64,000 nt of DNA from a virus (Duplodnaviria; Heunggongvirae; Uroviricota; Caudoviricetes), in the IMG/VR virus record IMGVR_UViG_3300017565_000001, positions 141,741 to 205,740 of that record, one strand, 5' to 3'. The position numbers and the translations under genes were made by a program. The stretch's first letter is position 1; every line of letters starts with the position of its first letter. The notes beneath the pieces are model-generated. The model did not search any database and was not told the origin of the DNA. It worked only from the letters and a program-made list of their open reading frames with translations. Below, one piece after another: positions 7,204 through 61,426 of the stretch.

Positions 7204-7950
7204 ATGAACCGCGACAAACTTCAAAAGGTTCTCAGTATCGCTGGCATTGGTGTGGTTGTCATCGGTGCTGGTCTGATGGCAATGACCATCATCAAAGGGG
7301 TAGTCGCGTTGACGACCCTGGTGGTTGGCAGCATGGCACTGTACTTTGGTATTCCGGTACTGGCCAAATGGGCCGCACATTCGCAAATCGCCGCAATGAT
7401 CGGCCTTGTGAATCTGAATCCGATTCCCGAGCTGATCGATCAGTACAAGAAGGATGCCGCGCGCATCGAAGACGCCAAGAAAGCTGTCGAAGATTTGGGC
7501 GTTGAAACCCGATCGTATCGCGAAAAGCTGGCGCAGTTCGAGCGCACTGATCCTGACAAGGTCGATGATTTCCGCCAAACGCTCGTGAGCATGGTGAAGG
7601 TATACAACTACCAGGTTGCCAAGATCAACGAGGCTCAGGTGGAACTCCGCAAGTTCAACACCGAAATCGAATCCGCAAAGCGGGTGTGGGACATGAGCAA
7701 GGCTGCATACCGTGCGAGCAATGCGCTGAAGAAGTTCAATGCACCCGACCCCATGGATCAGATCATGCGTCAAACGGCGCTGGATGCTGTGTCCAAGTCC
7801 AAACATCGTGCGCTGGAAGCCATGGATCTCAGCCTGAAACTGGACTACGACTCGATCGACGACGTCAAGAACGTGCCGCAACTGGCAGACGATCCGACGG
7901 AAATCATCGACGCCAAATTCACCACTGTCAAGGAGACTGCCCGTGCGTAA
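7204..7950 (+). CDS. membrane-anchored coiled-coil protein (PspA/IM30-like)
   Basis: two N-terminal TM helices then long heptad-rich helix. Confidence 0.55.
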   Translation: MNRDKLQKVLSIAGIGVVVIGAGLMAMTIIKGVVALTTLVVGSMALYFGIPVLAKWAAHSQIAAMIGLVNLNPIPELIDQYKKDAARIEDAKKAVEDLGVETRSYREKLAQFERTDPDKVDDFRQTLVSMVKVYNYQVAKINEAQVELRKFNTEIESAKRVWDMSKAAYRASNALKKFNAPDPMDQIMRQTALDAVSKSKHRALEAMDLSLKLDYDSIDDVKNVPQLADDPTEIIDAKFTTVKETARA

Positions 7951-8107
7951 ACTTCTCGGCCTGATTGCTCTGGTCCTGGTTATCCTGGTGGCCTACGGCG
8001 TCAACAATGGCTTCGACTTCAGCGGGGACTCCAAACCCCAGAAACGCAGTGCCCCGGCAAGCAAACCTGCTTCCGGCAACGACCCCTTCAGCAATCTGCG
8101 GATGTAA
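7943..8107 (+). CDS. small exported/membrane peptide (54 aa; not in ORF track)
   Basis: GTG start overlapping the previous stop after AAGGAG; MRKLLGLIALVLVILVAYG...FSNLRM. Confidence 0.65.
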   Translation: MRKLLGLIALVLVILVAYGVNNGFDFSGDSKPQKRSAPASKPASGNDPFSNLRM

Positions 8108-27158: not shown

Positions 27159-27481
27159 TGTATCAGGAAGAACCAGGTAGTTCTTTCACCCATGACGGGC
27201 GCGAATATGATCTCAACTATCTGTTAAGATGTTCGACCTTGTTCCCAGTCGTTGATGTATTGGTCGATGATCTTACTTGGGTTCTTGAATATGATTCTCC
27301 AAATATTCGCCGTCTCATGGCTGCCGATTTAGACGCTCCCATTCTGGTTACGTGGTGGAATGACAAGTTGGTAGTCTTGGATGGACTGCATAGAATGGCT
27401 AAGGCTATGGTGTTTGGTTGCAAAAACAATCCCAGGTCGATACATTCCCGCATATGTTCTAAGTATGGCATTGATTGCTAA
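27158..27481 (+). CDS. ParB/Srx-like domain protein (possible frameshifted C-terminus)
   Basis: PILV ... VVLDGLHR.AKA motif. Confidence 0.55.
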   Translation: MYQEEPGSSFTHDGREYDLNYLLRCSTLFPVVDVLVDDLTWVLEYDSPNIRRLMAADLDAPILVTWWNDKLVVLDGLHRMAKAMVFGCKNNPRSIHSRICSKYGIDC

Positions 27482-29801: not shown

Positions 29802-30075
29802 AGCTCGCATACAATCTGAACTCATCGAAGCGATTAGAGTCAGAATGCAAGCCATCCCCGACCTGAATGTGCCAGGCCTTAAGGCCTGGCAGGTTGGACG
29901 TGTGTATGTTGTCGCCACTTCTGAACATAACCTACTGACAATCGCAGTCATGCAACGAGGTCCAGACAGGGAGCCGGAAACTCTTATGTCATGGATGGAA
30001 GTCGACGGTGAAATAACCAGAATGGAACGGAAGGGATTCACAGTTGATGATCTCGTCATGCACGCTTTGTCATAA
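29755..30075 (+). CDS. hypothetical protein
   Basis: GGAGG RBS. Confidence 0.6.
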   Translation: MIEELKSFFFKTAKAEARIQSELIEAIRVRMQAIPDLNVPGLKAWQVGRVYVVATSEHNLLTIAVMQRGPDREPETLMSWMEVDGEITRMERKGFTVDDLVMHALS

Positions 30076-30246
30076 AGTTGTTGACATGTGGCATTCCGTT
30101 TGCTAAAGTATGATCTGTGGTGCAGATTGCTAAATAGATTTGTCGCAACACTGCACAAAATTTTCACAAATAGTTATTGCAAACCCGAAAAGGTTCATGT
30201 ACTATTTGTTCTGTTGATTATTAAATTTCTCGAAAAGGAAACTTTC

Positions 30247-30357
30247 ATGAACGCTTATTCATATTTCTCGTACTGCTCGGAGACCGAAGGGTCGTCGCGC
30301 GGCTACGGCTATGAATGCGGATATGAGGGTACGTTCGGGGGTTGGCGAATGCGATAA
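30247..30357 (+). CDS. attenuator leader peptide 1 (36 aa, Tyr/Ser/Glu/Gly/Cys-rich)
   Basis: AAGGA RBS; MNAYSYFSYCSETEGSSRGYGYECGYEGTFGGWRMR directly before terminator and tRNA array. Confidence 0.8.
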   Translation: MNAYSYFSYCSETEGSSRGYGYECGYEGTFGGWRMR

Positions 30358-30420
30358 GCGTTCACCTAGCGAAAGCTAACAACCCTCGAAGCGTAATAGT
30401 TTCGGGGGTTTCGTGTTTTA
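30324..30420 (+). promoter_or_regulatory. attenuator 1: antiterminator 30324-30334/30380-30390 competing with terminator 30381-30392/30399-30410
   Basis: TTCGGGGGTTG pairs with CAACCCTCGAA (11 bp); AACCCTCGAAGC/GTTTCGGGGGTT (12 bp) followed by TCGTGTTTT. Confidence 0.8.
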
Positions 30421-30435
30421 GATGTTGAGATTTAC

Positions 30436-30522
30436 GGGTGGTAGGTGCGCTGGGCGCTAACTTGCCTCGAAAACAAGCCCCTCCAGTGATGGGGGATGGT
30501 TCGATTCCATTACTACCCGCCA
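30436..30522 (+). tRNA. tRNA-Ser(CGA), probably 8/4 acceptor/T-stem form
   Basis: GGGTGGTA/TACTACCC, long variable arm, G73, CCA. Confidence 0.8.
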
Positions 30523-30534
30523 AGAACGTTTCGT

Positions 30535-30619
30535 GTATCAGATGGTAAACTGGCTAAATCAGCTGTCTGTAAAACAGTCGCCTCCGGGCTTGTAGGTTCG
30601 ATTCCTACCTGATACACAA
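30535..30619 (+). tRNA. tRNA-Tyr(GTA)
   Basis: type II cloverleaf; ends ACAA (CCA not encoded). Confidence 0.9.
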
Positions 30620-30633
30620 AACGTTTTTGAAAT

Positions 30634-30718
30634 ATCCTGTGATGACGGCTGGGTACCGTCAGAAGACTTTCAATCTTCCCTGTTCCACAGTGGGGTTCGA
30701 TTCCCCCACAGGATACCA
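30634..30718 (+). tRNA. allo-tRNA-like species with TTC (Glu) anticodon, 8/4 fold, long variable arm
   Basis: ATCCTGTG/CACAGGAT; TGACGG/CCGTCA D-stem; GAAGA-CTTTCAA-TCTTC; CTGT/ACAG V-arm; GGGG/CCCC T-stem; CCA. Confidence 0.7.
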
Positions 30719-30727
30719 AGTTTTAAT

Positions 30728-30812
30728 GGGGATGCGGCTCAGATGGCGAGGGGCGGCTGACTGTAAATCAGTTCTTTCGGGTGAGTAGGTTCGAATCCTT
30801 CCATCCCCACCA
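30728..30812 (+). tRNA. tRNA-Tyr(GTA)
   Basis: cloverleaf with CCA. Confidence 0.95.
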
Positions 30813-30819
30813 AGTTTTT

Positions 30820-30895
30820 ACTCTGTTCGTCTATCGGTTAGGACGCTAGACTTTCAATCTGGAAAGACGGGTTCGACTCCCGTACAGAGTGCCAG
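30820..30895 (+). tRNA. tRNA-Glu(TTC)
   Basis: cloverleaf with CCA. Confidence 0.95.
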
Positions 30896-30905
30896 AATTA
30901 TTCCA

Positions 30906-30992
30906 GTCTTACTGATGAGCCCTAATGGGCGAAACAGTTGCAGGGAAAGATGGTGTTTCCGCCCCCATCAAGTATCTGTAGCTGTCTGAGAC
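30906..30992 (+). ncRNA. hammerhead ribozyme (type I); predicted cleavage after C30986
   Basis: stem I GTCTTA/TGAGAC, CTGATGA core, stem II GCCC/GGGC, GAAA, stem III CAGTTGCAG/CTGTAGCTG, GUC cleavage triplet. Confidence 0.9.
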
Positions 30993-31000
30993 ATGTTTGT

Positions 31001-31075
31001 ATTGCCGTTGACTTCTGGTGAGGTCTCCAGGCTTTCAACCTGGCTAGGCGAGTTCGATCCTCGTCGGCAATACAA
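31001..31075 (+). tRNA. tRNA-Glu(TTC)
   Basis: CCAGG-CTTTCAA-CCTGG; ends ACAA. Confidence 0.85.
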
Positions 31076-31086
31076 AGATGTTTCAT

Positions 31087-31183
31087 GTAGGGGATGTTCC
31101 GTAAGGCTGACGGTAAAATCGATAAAAGTGTGATGGGTGCTGCCCTAAACACCCCAGAGGTTCGAGTCCTCACCCCTACTCCA
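31087..31183 (+). ncRNA. tRNA-like RNA without a canonical anticodon loop
   Basis: GTAGGGG/CCCCTAC stem, T-arm GAGG-TTCGAGT-CCTC, TCCA end. Confidence 0.6.
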
Positions 31184-31192
31184 AGTTTTAAT

Positions 31193-31280
31193 GGGTTCCT
31201 TTCCCGCCGGCGGTCTGTAAAACCGTTGCCTAATAAGGTGGGTTGGTTGGCGTGAGGTTCGAAGCCTCGGGAACCCACCA
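31193..31280 (+). tRNA. non-canonical tRNA-Tyr(GTA)-like RNA lacking a normal D-arm
   Basis: GGGTTCC/GGAACCC, GCGGT-CTGTAAA-ACCGT, T-arm, CCA; only 10 nt between acceptor and anticodon arm. Confidence 0.7.
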
Positions 31281-31289
31281 AGTTTTAAT

Positions 31290-31364
31290 GCACCGTTCGT
31301 CTATCGGTTAGGACATCGCCCTTTCAAGGCGGCAAGATGGGTTCGATTCCCATACGGTGTGCCA
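31290..31364 (+). tRNA. tRNA-Glu(TTC)
   Basis: cloverleaf with CCA. Confidence 0.95.
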
Positions 31365-31421
31365 GTTGACCTCGTATTCATTTGATGCCATAATGGTAAG
31401 AATGTAAACGAGGAGAACGAT

Positions 31422-31646
31422 ATGGCTGATCGCGTGACCCTTCGGGGTAAGCTGATTGATGGGCAGTATGATCGCGAAATCGCGGATGCTGTTATTCAAG
31501 AAGCACGCAAGACGGTTGATGTCCCAACCCAGAACATTTACGTTTGTGGGTCCTGGGGTGGATACGTCACTATCAGTTGTAATGTACAAGGATTTTGTGA
31601 TGCCCTAGTTGTCGCTGCCCGGAACATGGGGCTTGACGTTCAATAA
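31422..31646 (+). CDS. hypothetical protein within tRNA array
   Basis: GAGGAG RBS, own promoter-like TTGAC..CATAAT. Confidence 0.7.
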   Translation: MADRVTLRGKLIDGQYDREIADAVIQEARKTVDVPTQNIYVCGSWGGYVTISCNVQGFCDALVVAARNMGLDVQ

Positions 31647-31655
31647 GGAGGCAAC

Positions 31656-31799
31656 ATGAGAGCATTTGGTAGTGTTCGTGGTAAATACTGTGAGTGGAGA
31701 TTCACTGGTAGATATTACGGACGAAGCAGAATTTTCAATGCGGGGAAACTTGAAATCAAGTCCCGCAAACGTGGACGGAAATGGTCCACAGATGATTGA
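31656..31799 (+). CDS. small basic peptide (47 aa)
   Basis: AAGGAGG RBS; MRAFGSVRGK... Confidence 0.45.
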   Translation: MRAFGSVRGKYCEWRFTGRYYGRSRIFNAGKLEIKSRKRGRKWSTDD

Positions 31800-31807
31800 C
31801 CGATTAC

Positions 31808-31881
31808 GCGGGTAAGCTCGAGGTGAGTCGCCGGCCTTCCAAGCCGCGCAGAGTTGGGTTCGATTCCCACTATCCGCTCCA
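31808..31881 (+). tRNA. tRNA-Gly(TCC)
   Basis: cloverleaf, U73, CCA. Confidence 0.9.
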
Positions 31882-31999
31882 GTTTTGAATGTGAGAGAAA
31901 TCTCCTGGCTAGTCACAAGGGAACGACAGAATCGGGGCAACGAGCCTTAACCTTGCCCGAAGAACGGAAATATCCGTCTACGTCGTTACGTTCGTTTTT

Positions 32000-32074
32000 G
32001 CAGGATTAATTCAGTGGTAGAATGTCTGCTTGCCAAGCAGAATGTCATCGGTTCGAATCCGATATCCTGCTCCA
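32000..32074 (+). tRNA. tRNA-Gly(GCC)
   Basis: cloverleaf, CCA. Confidence 0.95.
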
Positions 32075-32082
32075 AGTTTTAT

Positions 32083-32158
32083 GCGTGGGTAGCTCAGTTG
32101 GTAGAGTACCTGGTTGCCAACCAGGACGTCGCGGGTTCGAACCCCGTCCCACGCTCCA
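32083..32158 (+). tRNA. tRNA-Gly(GCC)
   Basis: cloverleaf, CCA. Confidence 0.95.
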
Positions 32159-32166
32159 GTTTACAT

Positions 32167-32257
32167 GTTCCGGTGGCCGAGTTGGCTTAGGCAGCGGTCT
32201 GCAAAACCGTTAGCGGGAGAAATCCCCACGCAGGTTCGAATCCTGTTCGGAACTCCA
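32167..32257 (+). tRNA. tRNA-Cys(GCA) with long variable arm
   Basis: GCGGT-CTGCAAA-ACCGT, GGGA-GAAA-TCCC V-arm, U73, CCA. Confidence 0.85.
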
Positions 32258-32330
32258 AGATGCTTGACTTTGATGCCATATGAACATAACATATGGCATC
32301 AATTGTTTTGAGCCACTGACAAGGAATCCA

Positions 32331-32606
32331 ATGAGCGTTCGATACACGGCAATCCTCGCATTCGGAAGAGAATTCAAGTCCAAGGGCGACATCGAGGATT
32401 TCTTGGAAAGCCATGGCTATGATCCCCAGGAGGAATGGCCCAATGGTCTCGAATGCATTTACCTGAACCGCCTGGATGGTGAAGAACCGATCCTGGGTTG
32501 GGAGATCGAGGTCGATGCTGGTGTCCCAGAACTCCAGAAGGAATGGCAGGAGATGTTCCCCAACAGCGAACCCGCTGACGCAATTCTCGCGGTGCAAATG
32601 TCATGA
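32331..32606 (+). CDS. hypothetical acidic protein
   Basis: AAGGA RBS. Confidence 0.65.
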   Translation: MSVRYTAILAFGREFKSKGDIEDFLESHGYDPQEEWPNGLECIYLNRLDGEEPILGWEIEVDAGVPELQKEWQEMFPNSEPADAILAVQMS

Positions 32607-41515: not shown

Positions 41516-42003
41516 GTCAACATCTCTTTAAGGACTAGATGCGCGAAGCCTGTACTTGGCACGTTCTTAATAATCGTCCAAGTAGAATTGTTATTGGACC
41601 CTTCGATTGAAATACTCGTTGGTTGTCTACCAAAGTCGGTTGGGCACGCAATCTTCACACTGCCGATAACTTTGGATGCAGTCAGATCAACGGACCACCA
41701 GCATGATCTATTCGCATTGGGGGAATTGTTGGCGGCGCCACACCACATGCTTGTAGTCGCTGATGATATGACGCCGTCAATGGGCCCAACTATTCTGTAT
41801 GTTGCGTCATAAACGCTTGATGCGAAACATGGTGTGGTACCCAAAACACACAAATTGGATCCAGTGGTAGTGGTGCGTATTTCCACTTCACTAATAGTAG
41901 GGTACTGTCCACCAGCAAGTAATACGATTCGAACGTATCGATAAGAATTTGCCGGAGGGGCCGGCCGTTTACTCGCCAGCAAAAGTCTTTGAGAAATCGT
42001 CAT
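41512..42003 (-). CDS. discoidin / F5-8 type C domain protein (paralog)
   Basis: YRYVRI ... WWSVDL ... IEGSNNNSTWT. Confidence 0.75.
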   Translation of the reverse strand: MTISQRLLLASKRPAPPANSYRYVRIVLLAGGQYPTISEVEIRTTTTGSNLCVLGTTPCFASSVYDATYRIVGPIDGVISSATTSMWCGAANNSPNANRSCWWSVDLTASKVIGSVKIACPTDFGRQPTSISIEGSNNNSTWTIIKNVPSTGFAHLVLKEMLT

Positions 42004-42098
42004 AACGCTATAGTTGACCGTTCGATATCAAAATTGTAGTTTAATATTTATGGTGGCGCACCATACTAAATAAAATGCACACATAATTAGGCGCAAAC

Positions 42099-52522: not shown

Positions 52523-53387
52523 AGTACGGATTTTGATTGTGGGTGAGCGCGGCCTTGTTGCCCAACGACTTCGCGAACGGTTGGAAAAGGATGACTTTGA
52601 GGTCCAGGTCATCTCCACCGACGAAGCCCTTACTGGAAACCTGCAGGGCAGCGTAAACGGTAAGGATGTAGTCGTATTGTGTGGTCAAGATTTCGTGAGT
52701 TCTCAAGTCATGGATCGTCTCCCAGATGGAGTGCGAGTCCTAGATGTGAGTCCCACATTTCGCAACTATCCGTCATGGGTGTACGGACTGCCCGAACTAC
52801 ATGACGGGTATGATAAAATCCGTCATGCTACACGAGTGGCCAATCCTGGATGCTTTGCCACTGCGGCCATCCTTGCCTTGGAACCACCAACAAAAGGTCG
52901 CATGATACCCAGGTATACCCACGTGTATCTGGACGCGACCGCTGGATATTCTTCTGGTGGGACCAAGCTCATAAACCAGGTTACTGATGGACTCATGGTG
53001 AACGAAACCATGTTCAGTCTGAATCGAGAACACCGACACGTTCAGGAAATCAAAACACACTCAGGCGCAAGCGGTCCAGTGATTTTTCACCCCAAGGTCG
53101 ATCCGTTGACTTTCAGTGGGACTCGTATGGTGGTGAGCATCCCCAACGTTCGAGCAGACGAACTCAGAGCCTTGTACCGTGAAGTGTATCAGGGCACTGA
53201 AATTATTGTCCTTGACGACAATCCGTCCAGCATCAAGGTGAACGACTGGGCGGACAAGGAGGGGGCATGTTTGCGGGTGTATGAAAACGAAATAGGATCA
53301 ACCGTCATATGCACCCTAGACAACCTGTTGAAGGGTGCGGTGAGTGCAGCAGTGCGCAATGTCACTTTGATGACGCAGAAAGCCTAA
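52515..53387 (+). CDS. argC: N-acetyl-gamma-glutamyl-phosphate reductase
   Basis: G..GLV Rossmann start, DVS..FR...WVYGLPEL, RVANPGCFAT, GYSSGG, LDNLLKGA. Confidence 0.85.
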   Translation: MSEVRILIVGERGLVAQRLRERLEKDDFEVQVISTDEALTGNLQGSVNGKDVVVLCGQDFVSSQVMDRLPDGVRVLDVSPTFRNYPSWVYGLPELHDGYDKIRHATRVANPGCFATAAILALEPPTKGRMIPRYTHVYLDATAGYSSGGTKLINQVTDGLMVNETMFSLNREHRHVQEIKTHSGASGPVIFHPKVDPLTFSGTRMVVSIPNVRADELRALYREVYQGTEIIVLDDNPSSIKVNDWADKEGACLRVYENEIGSTVICTLDNLLKGAVSAAVRNVTLMTQKA

Positions 53388-60871: not shown

Positions 60872-61060
60872 TTAACCCCCACTGAAAAGTGGAAAAATTC
60901 ATTGGTGTAGTGTAAAAACTACACCTTGTGAACAAGGTTAAAAATTTTGTTGTTTTATCACAAAGTATTTGACACTGTTTGCTAAATAGATTTACCATAA
61001 ACGTATTGTTAATTGCTGAAGACATTGTGTCCAAGGCACTTTCTAGGATTAGAGACTGAA

Positions 61061-61189
61061 ATGAAACCCTTTTTCCATCAACCCGTCGTGAAAGCGCTGA
61101 GCTTGCCCGCGATGTTTGCCGCCCAATGGCAAACCCGCAGTCAGCTTCGCAATATTCGCGATAATCGGGTAGGGGTCTTAGGAACGTAA
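61061..61189 (+). CDS. attenuator leader peptide 2 (42 aa; not in ORF track)
   Basis: MKPFFHQPVVKALSLPAMFAAQWQTRSQLRNIRDNRVGVLGT directly before terminator and tRNA array. Confidence 0.75.
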   Translation: MKPFFHQPVVKALSLPAMFAAQWQTRSQLRNIRDNRVGVLGT

Positions 61190-61254
61190 GTTCAGTCAAG
61201 CGCATACGCTTAACTAAGATCCCTAGAATGTAAAAGTTCTAGGGATTTTTGTTT
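61172..61254 (+). promoter_or_regulatory. attenuator 2: antiterminator 61172-61181/61214-61223 competing with terminator 61219-61228/61237-61246
   Basis: GGGGTCTTAG/CTAAGATCCC (10 bp); ATCCCTAGAA/TTCTAGGGAT followed by TTTTGTTT. Confidence 0.85.
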
Positions 61255-61426
61255 GGCAAGCGAACCGTGAAAAATGAGGAAACGAGCTCCTCGATTCACA
61301 CGGCAAAAAGAGAATCAAAGGGGCGGAGCTAGGGCATGAACACTGGGCGATAACCAGTTAGTAAGAACTAGTTCATATGTGAGTGTCTGTACGTTGGCAT
61401 TCACATACGTTCAGAGAGTTCTTTGT

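Follow-up and report, generated by a model that had tools for sequence, protein, structure and literature searches.

A candidate leader-peptide attenuator of a jumbo-phage tRNA operon, likely sensing the decoding of the operon's own codons

Introduction

Leader-peptide attenuators of enterobacteria include trpL, hisL, leuL and pheL, and Rfam holds Thr, Leu, Trp, His and Phe leader families. Some attenuators are multivalent: the thr leader senses threonine and isoleucine, and the ilvGMEDA and ilvBN leaders sense isoleucine, leucine and valine. In the Escherichia coli pheST operon, an attenuator controls phenylalanyl-tRNA synthetase with feedback via the charged transfer RNA (tRNA), while T-box elements bind uncharged tRNA directly, need no translation, and control synthetase or amino-acid genes, not tRNA genes. 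Bacterial tRNA genes themselves are thought to be controlled at their promoters, by growth rate and the stringent response, and not by attenuation; how phages time and dose their own tRNAs is, to our knowledge, unknown. Here we analyse a stretch of 64,000 nucleotides (nt), hereafter the window, which comprises bases 141741-205740 of a 424,529-bp IMG/VR virus record (IMGVR_UViG_3300017565_000001) with direct terminal repeats. We propose that its region 30081-30435 (window coordinates) is a leader-peptide transcription attenuator of the tRNA operon at 30436-32257 and senses the decoding of the operon's own codons, a reading that we consider likely. The phage would then probably make its Ser-Tyr-Glu-Gly-Cys tRNAs only when ribosomes read those codons slowly.

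The element resembles the thr-, ilv- and trp-type leaders in several parts: a short open reading frame (ORF) with a Shine-Dalgarno site, rich in codons that would report on the regulated product; an intrinsic terminator ahead of the structural genes; and, beside the ORF stop codon, an antiterminator that uses one of the terminator strands. As in the thr and ilv leaders, several amino acids would be sensed by a single leader. In contrast to the leaders of amino-acid operons, however, it is phage-borne and would control tRNAs rather than biosynthetic enzymes, its product acting directly on the sensor codons; the range sensed would be five amino acids plus one specific Ser codon; the antiterminator is a predicted three-way junction that holds the stop codon in a loop; and the element has no sequence or covariance-model similarity to those leaders. 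Unlike trp-type leaders, it lacks a significant 1:2 anti-antiterminator. With pheST it would share leader-peptide attenuation of translation-apparatus genes and feedback through charged tRNA, but pheST is cellular and controls a synthetase through one amino acid, whereas the viral element would control tRNA genes through five. The T-box likewise operates a terminator/antiterminator switch that reads a specific tRNA state and controls translation-apparatus genes; the phage element differs in its predicted translated ORF and in having no T-box match. Searches with the Rfam leader families (Trp, His, Leu, Thr, Phe) and the T-box returned no match at E ≤ 1 in 30000-32400 and none at the gathering score across the window. 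Control in the style of the trp operon is known in kind, but we found no publication of its use on tRNA genes: leader-peptide attenuation of such genes was not found described in full-text searches, and a study of Pseudomonas phages reports premature termination in 5' untranslated regions (UTRs) and nothing on tRNA leaders (PMC10914365).

The leader codons match the tRNAs of the downstream operon

The operon encodes, in order, Ser(CGA), Tyr, Glu, Tyr, Glu, Glu, Glu, two small ORFs, a Gly(UCC)-like gene, two Gly(GCC) genes and Cys. The site at 32270-32302 is the first terminator-like site on the + strand after the leader terminator stem at 30381-30410, and the unit enclosed by these two terminators therefore has tRNAs for Ser, Tyr, Glu, Gly and Cys and for no other amino acid. 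Its first gene, separated from the leader terminator stem by 25 nt, is Ser(CGA) at 30436-30522, in agreement with an earlier note on this DNA, made from the sequence alone. Coordinates are collected in Table 1.

The same note had singled out codons 4-28 of the leader ORF as a run of Tyr, Ser, Glu, Gly and Cys codons, and the recount bears this out: 22 of the 25 specify one of these amino acids (6 Tyr, 5 Ser, 4 Glu, 5 Gly and 2 Cys), the exceptions being F7, T13 and R18. The five amino acids together account for 23.6% of codons in the long ORFs of the genome, which gives a binomial P of 1.8e-11 for 22 of 25. Among ~352,000 stop-free 25-codon windows in the six frames of the 424.5-kb genome, codons 4-28 score highest; once the leader's own overlapping windows are set aside, the next in rank are stretches resembling Gly or Ser homopolymers. 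The match also holds codon by codon. Under standard wobble, 21 of the 25 leader codons are decoded by anticodons of the operon (usage fraction 0.18, P = 1.5e-12). The UCC anticodon of the Gly(UCC)-like gene covers GGG and GGA, and TCA is the only codon for a cognate amino acid that lacks a matching operon anticodon. The preference for the Ser codon TCG, also pointed out earlier, was reproduced: the leader uses one TCA and four TCG, a codon with a 14.9% share of the Ser codons in long ORFs of the genome (P = 0.002 for at least four of five).

The 23-nt Shine-Dalgarno/start context of the leader is identical in all three loci carrying this cassette (3/3), and an automatic gene caller predicts the leader ORF of one relative (L002) as a 36-amino-acid gene. 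A longer reading of 89 codons from a GTG at 30088 was rejected, the in-frame extension being cut by stops in the relatives. When the leader peptide was searched against 1.84 billion protein representatives, only its own cluster and one unrelated repeat protein were recovered.

We also ran a generic scan for ORFs whose codons match the tRNAs behind them on this phage and five cultured phages. It returned the leader at p = 6e-8. Nothing below 5e-4 was obtained in Pseudomonas phage PaBG or in the tRNA-rich phages VSe12, 4MG, Slicko01 and Kashira. The best candidate from these four tRNA-rich phages, in Kashira, has no terminator and was not convincing, and a codon-matched leader was not found in PaBG.

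One RNA strand is shared by a predicted terminator and a predicted antiterminator

The terminator that had been proposed between the leader and the tRNAs is real by its predicted structure, a 12-bp stem of -19.1 kcal/mol, and a consensus scan found no promoter-like site between it and the first tRNA. The Phe-Gly-Gly-Trp codons of the leader (TTCGGGGGTTG) had been described as a repeat of the 3' strand of this terminator. They are indeed a copy of that strand (30401-30410), but they lie at 30334-30344 and not at 30324-30334. The proposed 11-bp pairing of TTCGGGGGTTG with 30380-30390 was recovered, one G-U included, and extends to 15 pairs between 30330-30344 (segment 2) and 30380-30395 (segment 3). 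The resulting 2:3 duplex has an energy of -23.2 kcal/mol, matched by none of 5000 random genome windows. Segment 3 can thus pair either with segment 2 or with segment 4, the 3' strand of the terminator. In the read-through form, the outer 2:3 helix and hairpins A and B build a three-way junction of -32.3 kcal/mol (z = -5.2). The long hairpin within the ORF reaches -39.7 kcal/mol (z = -5.55), and none of 200 shuffles was as stable; that this predicted hairpin has a role in pausing or in single-round translation is a conjecture.

At equilibrium, the full leader folds into the terminator at any ribosome position. Such folding is uninformative for a kinetic switch and was replaced by folds of the transcript before segment 4. 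Growing-transcript folds from three assumed start sites gave the same series in all cases. Before segment 3 is made, segment 2 is loosely held by 30227-30234; once 30380-30398 is made, segment 2 pairs with segment 3 in the minimum-energy fold; and when 30399-30411 is made, the terminator replaces the 2:3 pairing. To represent a ribosome, pairing was forbidden within a 30-nt footprint and the RNA was folded up to 30398. Under this constraint, the 2:3 pairing is present with the aminoacyl (A) site at codons 1-26 and lost at codons 27-36, while with the A site at the stop codon seven pairs remain, which are sterically doubtful. The earlier suggestion that a ribosome at the stop codon masks the antiterminator therefore holds in part: the 3' third of the segment is covered and the stop-codon hairpin is melted, but full masking occurs at codons 27-36. 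In these modelled folds, the sensing run of codons 4-28 nearly coincides with the stall positions that leave the antiterminator free.

Table 1. Features of the two attenuator cassettes and of the tRNA operon (window coordinates)
Feature	Position	Strand	Details
Best sigma-70-type promoter-like site	30081-30109	+	TTGACA, 17 nt, TAAAGT with TG; 10/12 in consensus scan
15-mer TTGCTAAATAGATTT	30127-30141	+	identical copy at 60979, upstream of cassette 2
Shine-Dalgarno AAGGA	30235-30239	+	7 nt before leader ATG; read from sequence
Long ORF-internal hairpin	30241-30330	+	start-codon region with codons 26-28; abuts segment 2
Leader ORF	30247-30357	+	ATG 30247, 36 codons, TAA 30355-30357
Putative sensing run, codons 4-28	30256-30330	+	Tyr/Ser/Glu/Gly/Cys codons
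Segment 2, antiterminator 5' strand	30330-30344	+	overlaps codons 28-33, includes TTCGGGGGTTG
Hairpin A	30347-30363	+	stop codon 30355-30357 in loop
Hairpin B	30367-30378	+	GAAA tetraloop
Segment 3, shared strand	30380-30395	+	alternative partners: segment 2 (read-through) or segment 4 (terminator)
Intrinsic terminator	30381-30419	+	12-bp stem 30381-30392/30399-30410, -19.1 kcal/mol, then T-rich tail TCGTGTTTT
tRNA operon	30436-32257	+	ARAGORN, Rfam, Gly(UCC) homologue in relative
Glu(UUC) tRNA	31001-31072	+	Rfam 45.7 bits; missed by ARAGORN
Small ORF, 74 amino acids	31422-31646		inside operon; conserved in L002 and L004
Small ORF, 47 amino acids, very basic	31656-31799		inside operon; conserved in L002 and L004
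Gly(UCC)-like cloverleaf	31808-31880	+	missed by ARAGORN; L002 homologue (7932-8004) called tRNA-Gly(tcc)
Closing terminator	32270-32302	+	13-bp stem and T run directly after tRNA-Cys
Cassette 2 leader ORF	61061-61189	+	42 codons
Cassette 2 antiterminator	61170-61181 with 61214-61225	+	12-bp 2:3 helix overlapping last codons
Cassette 2 terminator	61212-61229/61236-61253	+	strong

The cassette is conserved in relatives

Two Logan contigs that carry this cassette (cassette 1), L002 and L004, were reached via a neighbouring gene. No relatives were found in IMG/VR by the upstream gene, the tail sheath or a degenerate leader DNA pattern, and JGI metagenomes gave no match to the leader alignment or the terminator pattern. 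Leader codons 2-28 show 97.5% nucleotide identity in both contigs, whose flanking genes are 67-79% identical in DNA; the tRNA genes compared, the first three of the operon among them, are 86-100% identical (86-93% in eight of nine comparisons), one Glu gene being identical in L004. Two changes are all that was seen in codons 2-28. ACC to GCC affects a non-cognate codon and turns an A-U pair of the internal hairpin into G-U, and GGA to GGT falls on an unpaired base of the same hairpin. The terminator is 95-100% identical in the relatives.

The last eight residues of the leader differ in L004, with one codon added, and identity drops to 70% at the ORF end and to 61% in the spacer. The L004 RNA folds into the same three-way junction, in which the outer helix with the unchanged segment 3 is formed by UUUGAGGG instead of UUCGGGGG. 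The hairpin at the place of A has a different sequence and again carries the stop codon in its loop; that at the place of B (AGUUA-GCAA-UAACU) has a different stem and again a GNRA loop. Since the ORF end was rewritten while the fold stayed the same, the end of the peptide appears free to vary, whereas the fold is kept.

Upstream of the leader, the promoter-like site at 30081-30109 is kept in L002 and L004. The 15-mer at 30127 is possibly an extended -10 element (TGCTAAATA). In a genome-wide search, this 15-mer or near-copies of it occur on the + strand solely upstream of tRNA units, at 27475, 30127, 55414 and 60979, and the exact 15-mer is restricted to the two attenuator cassettes and invariant in the relatives. 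The TTGCTAAATAG-type motif in front of the four tRNA units could be a control site common to them or an extended -10 element. Promoters without a leader or a terminator are found at the single-tRNA units Thr 27552 and Pro 55488. The 5' UTR of cassette 1 further contains a small hairpin at 30182-30195 (AACC CGAAAA GGTT), which in L002 reads AAGC TGAAAA GCTT, a two-sided compensatory change (30184/30193). This hairpin sits in the spacer of a weak promoter-like site (TTGCAA, 17 nt, TACTAT).

A second cassette precedes the remaining tRNA arrays

A cassette of the same architecture and unrelated sequence lies at 61061-61253, with a copy of the 30127 15-mer upstream, and precedes a Pro-Val-Gln-His-Phe-Gln-Lys-Asp-Ser-Asn-Arg-Ile-Arg-Ala array. 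Its internal hairpin has z = -3.8, its 2:3 duplex is matched by one of 5000 control windows, and a small hairpin with the stop codon in the loop is again followed by a second hairpin. The first ten codons after the ATG specify only amino acids of the first seven tRNAs, something seen in only 2 of ~571,000 windows. All 35 codons before the structural tail (35/35) are decoded by the following arrays (P = 7e-5), where the arrays counted reach window coordinate 69114, beyond the window end. Tyr, Glu, Gly and Cys are absent from codons 2-36 (P = 0.0014). Serine is encoded as AGC or AGT in leader 2, whose array has Ser-GCT, and as TCG or TCA in leader 1, whose array has Ser-CGA. A word-indexed protein search with the 42-amino-acid second leader returned only itself.

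Cassette 2 is also conserved in the relative L005 and in L006, where compensatory changes are seen. Segment 3 of L005 has C in place of T, and segment 4 makes up for this with G in place of A; in the antiterminator, the segment 3 substitution turns a G-U pair into G-C. A further change, GTA to GTG, keeps its pair as G-U. The ~170 nt between the cassette 2 terminator and tRNA-Pro (61260-61426) are also conserved in L005 and contain a 21-codon Arg/Lys-rich ORF and a GAGCTCC/GGAGCT stem.

Proposed mechanism and alternative explanations

The ribosome site, codon match, terminator, antiterminator, conservation and second cassette all lend support to the attenuator interpretation put forward in the earlier note, as far as sequence and modelled folds can speak to it. 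According to the mechanism that we propose, a host-type RNA polymerase would start at one of the upstream promoter-like sites, and a ribosome would load at AAGGA/ATG (30235-30249) and translate the 36-codon ORF behind the moving polymerase. With fast decoding of codons 4-26, the ribosome would stand at codons 27-37 and cover segment 2 (30330-44) and hairpin A while segments 3 and 4 are made, so that the terminator (30381-30410) forms and transcription stops before the tRNAs. If cognate charged tRNAs are scarce and the ribosome stalls on the leader codons, segment 2 would be left free to pair with segment 3, and the resulting three-way junction would block the terminator and let the polymerase read into the tRNA genes. 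RNase P would release the tRNAs from the read-through transcript, and these would decode the codons that caused the stall, closing a negative feedback on the supply of the tRNA set. We infer leader translation, stalling, their timing, regulated termination and a physiological trigger, which might for instance be the loss of host tRNAs in infection.

Cassette 2 would exert the same control on the remaining tRNA arrays. Taken together, the two cassettes suggest a two-channel homeostat of tRNA supply, a broader proposal to which we give even chances. Most of the ~55 tRNA genes would then belong to two leader-gated systems, each leader listing the tRNAs behind it codon by codon: leader 1 those for Tyr, Glu, Gly, Cys and Ser-TCG, and leader 2, in which Ser is AGY, essentially all the rest. 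Decoding speed would be measured per codon group during infection, and only those tRNAs would be replaced that the host lacks or that defence nucleases or shut-off have removed. In this broader proposal, codon decoding and tRNA gene transcription would be joined in a direct sensor-effector loop without a protein regulator. If the attenuator itself works as proposed, a leader decoded by the tRNAs behind it would be the simplest possible feedback on tRNA supply. It would account for the way in which tRNA-rich phages deal with a loss of host tRNAs or with codon mismatch, and would provide a compact part, needing no protein, that senses how chosen codons are decoded. Because sigma-70-type promoters, a standard Shine-Dalgarno site and an intrinsic terminator are apparently used, the design could be tested with reporters in ordinary bacteria.

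Several observations weigh against this proposal. The U tract of the terminator is interrupted (TCGTGTTTT), the ORF-internal hairpin, once formed, buries the start codon, and a promoter-like site at 31366-31394 could drive the Gly-Gly-Cys part of the operon independently. Amino-acid starvation would open the gate as well, and futilely. The three sequences of cassette 1 are all close, and the covariation rests on few events. A 1:2 helix between 30227-34 and 30334-41 is seen in minimum-energy folds, but its pairing is no better than chance, and a trp-like anti-antiterminator was set aside as unsupported. At equilibrium, untranslated RNA forms the antiterminator before segment 4 appears. Since the 1:2 element is unsupported and the antiterminator forms without translation, the logic would differ from that of trp and rest wholly on kinetics. 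For the same lack of a 1:2 element supported beyond chance, untranslated RNA may default to read-through in the model.

The lack of a supported 1:2 element would also suit an attenuator that depends on translation but reports general translation capacity or coupling, in which any slow-down of the lead ribosome opens the gate and codon choice is minor. The geometry of the switch asks only whether the ribosome reaches or misses codons 27-37, and the second leader, with nearly all amino acids, resembles a general probe. We nevertheless regard this explanation as unlikely, because codon content is extreme, fits the individual operon and is complementary from one leader to the other, each leader uses a different Ser codon family that matches its own Ser isoacceptor, and in the relatives the sensing codons are invariant while a non-cognate codon has changed. 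An incidental ORF within an RNA-only switch, whose structures respond to a protein, a small molecule or, in T-box fashion, uncharged tRNA, appears quite improbable for other reasons: the amino-acid signal is confined to the leader frame, where it outscores every other window of the genome, conservation extends to the Shine-Dalgarno site and the ATG, and in L004 the ORF stays open despite an indel and a rewritten end, its stop codon falling in a hairpin loop again. No Rfam family, the T-box included, matched at E ≤ 1. Such a switch would nonetheless fit the strong folds (z = -4 to -5.5) and a conservation that reaches synonymous sites and the 5' UTR, including the compensatory pair 30184/30193.

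Gene callers predict the ORF as a gene and the N-terminal 28 residues of the peptide are conserved, as for an ordinary small-protein gene encoding a Tyr/Gly/Ser/Cys-rich peptide in front of a leaky terminator. Read-through would then be constitutive and the codon match a coincidence. Against this stands a match probability of ~1e-11, found twice with complementary composition, together with frozen synonymous sites, a significant antiterminator complementarity, and the replacement of the C-terminal eight residues in L004 with the RNA pairing kept; no homologue beyond the peptide's own cluster exists among the 1.84 billion representatives. We judge this account very unlikely. The least probable in our view, with only a slim chance of being right, is that the hairpins act as processing or stability signals in the 5' leader of the pre-tRNA, or that the polarity is opposite and stalled ribosomes cause termination. 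RNase P must remove a 5' leader in any case, a hammerhead-like motif lies within the array, and the full-length RNA always forms the terminator at equilibrium. However, segment 2 remains available in the constrained folds when the ribosome stalls at codons 4-26, which favours read-through, and a strand that can pair with either of two mutually exclusive partners is characteristic of a switch and not of a processing site.

Genome context and further observations

ARAGORN finds ~55 tRNA genes genome-wide, nearly all on the + strand at genome positions 169-226 kb. A tail sheath is among the PHROGs matches, and the window also encodes salvage enzymes for nicotinamide adenine dinucleotide (NAD). 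By tail sheath, the nearest cultured relative is PaBG, at only 47% identity, and the virus is therefore taken to be a distant, uncultured jumbo phage. The nearest cultured relatives by this protein (PaBG, NCTB, HRDY3 and Lu11) have five tRNAs or none. In a distant blastn search against the phage collection, tRNA genes were the sole matches.

Some details of the operon deserve mention. The 'tRNA-Glu' at 30634-30718 is 85 nt long and has a long variable arm, an unusual feature in a Glu tRNA. At 31098-31283 lie further tRNA-like pieces, among them a GTA anticodon-type loop, that neither ARAGORN nor Rfam calls. Between two of the tRNA-Glu genes, at 30904-30992, lies an unconfirmed hammerhead-like motif (Hammerhead_3, 22.7 bits against a gathering score of 48.5, E = 0.1).

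Two more ARAGORN calls fall outside the window: a tRNA with a CUA anticodon, of the amber suppressor type, at genome positions 53129-53203, and a tmRNA-like gene at 41648-42040. In PaBG (NC_022096.1; L011), hammerhead-like motifs (CTGATGAG ... CGAAA) are present at ~1970-2030, in an untranslated stretch upstream of its tRNA cluster.

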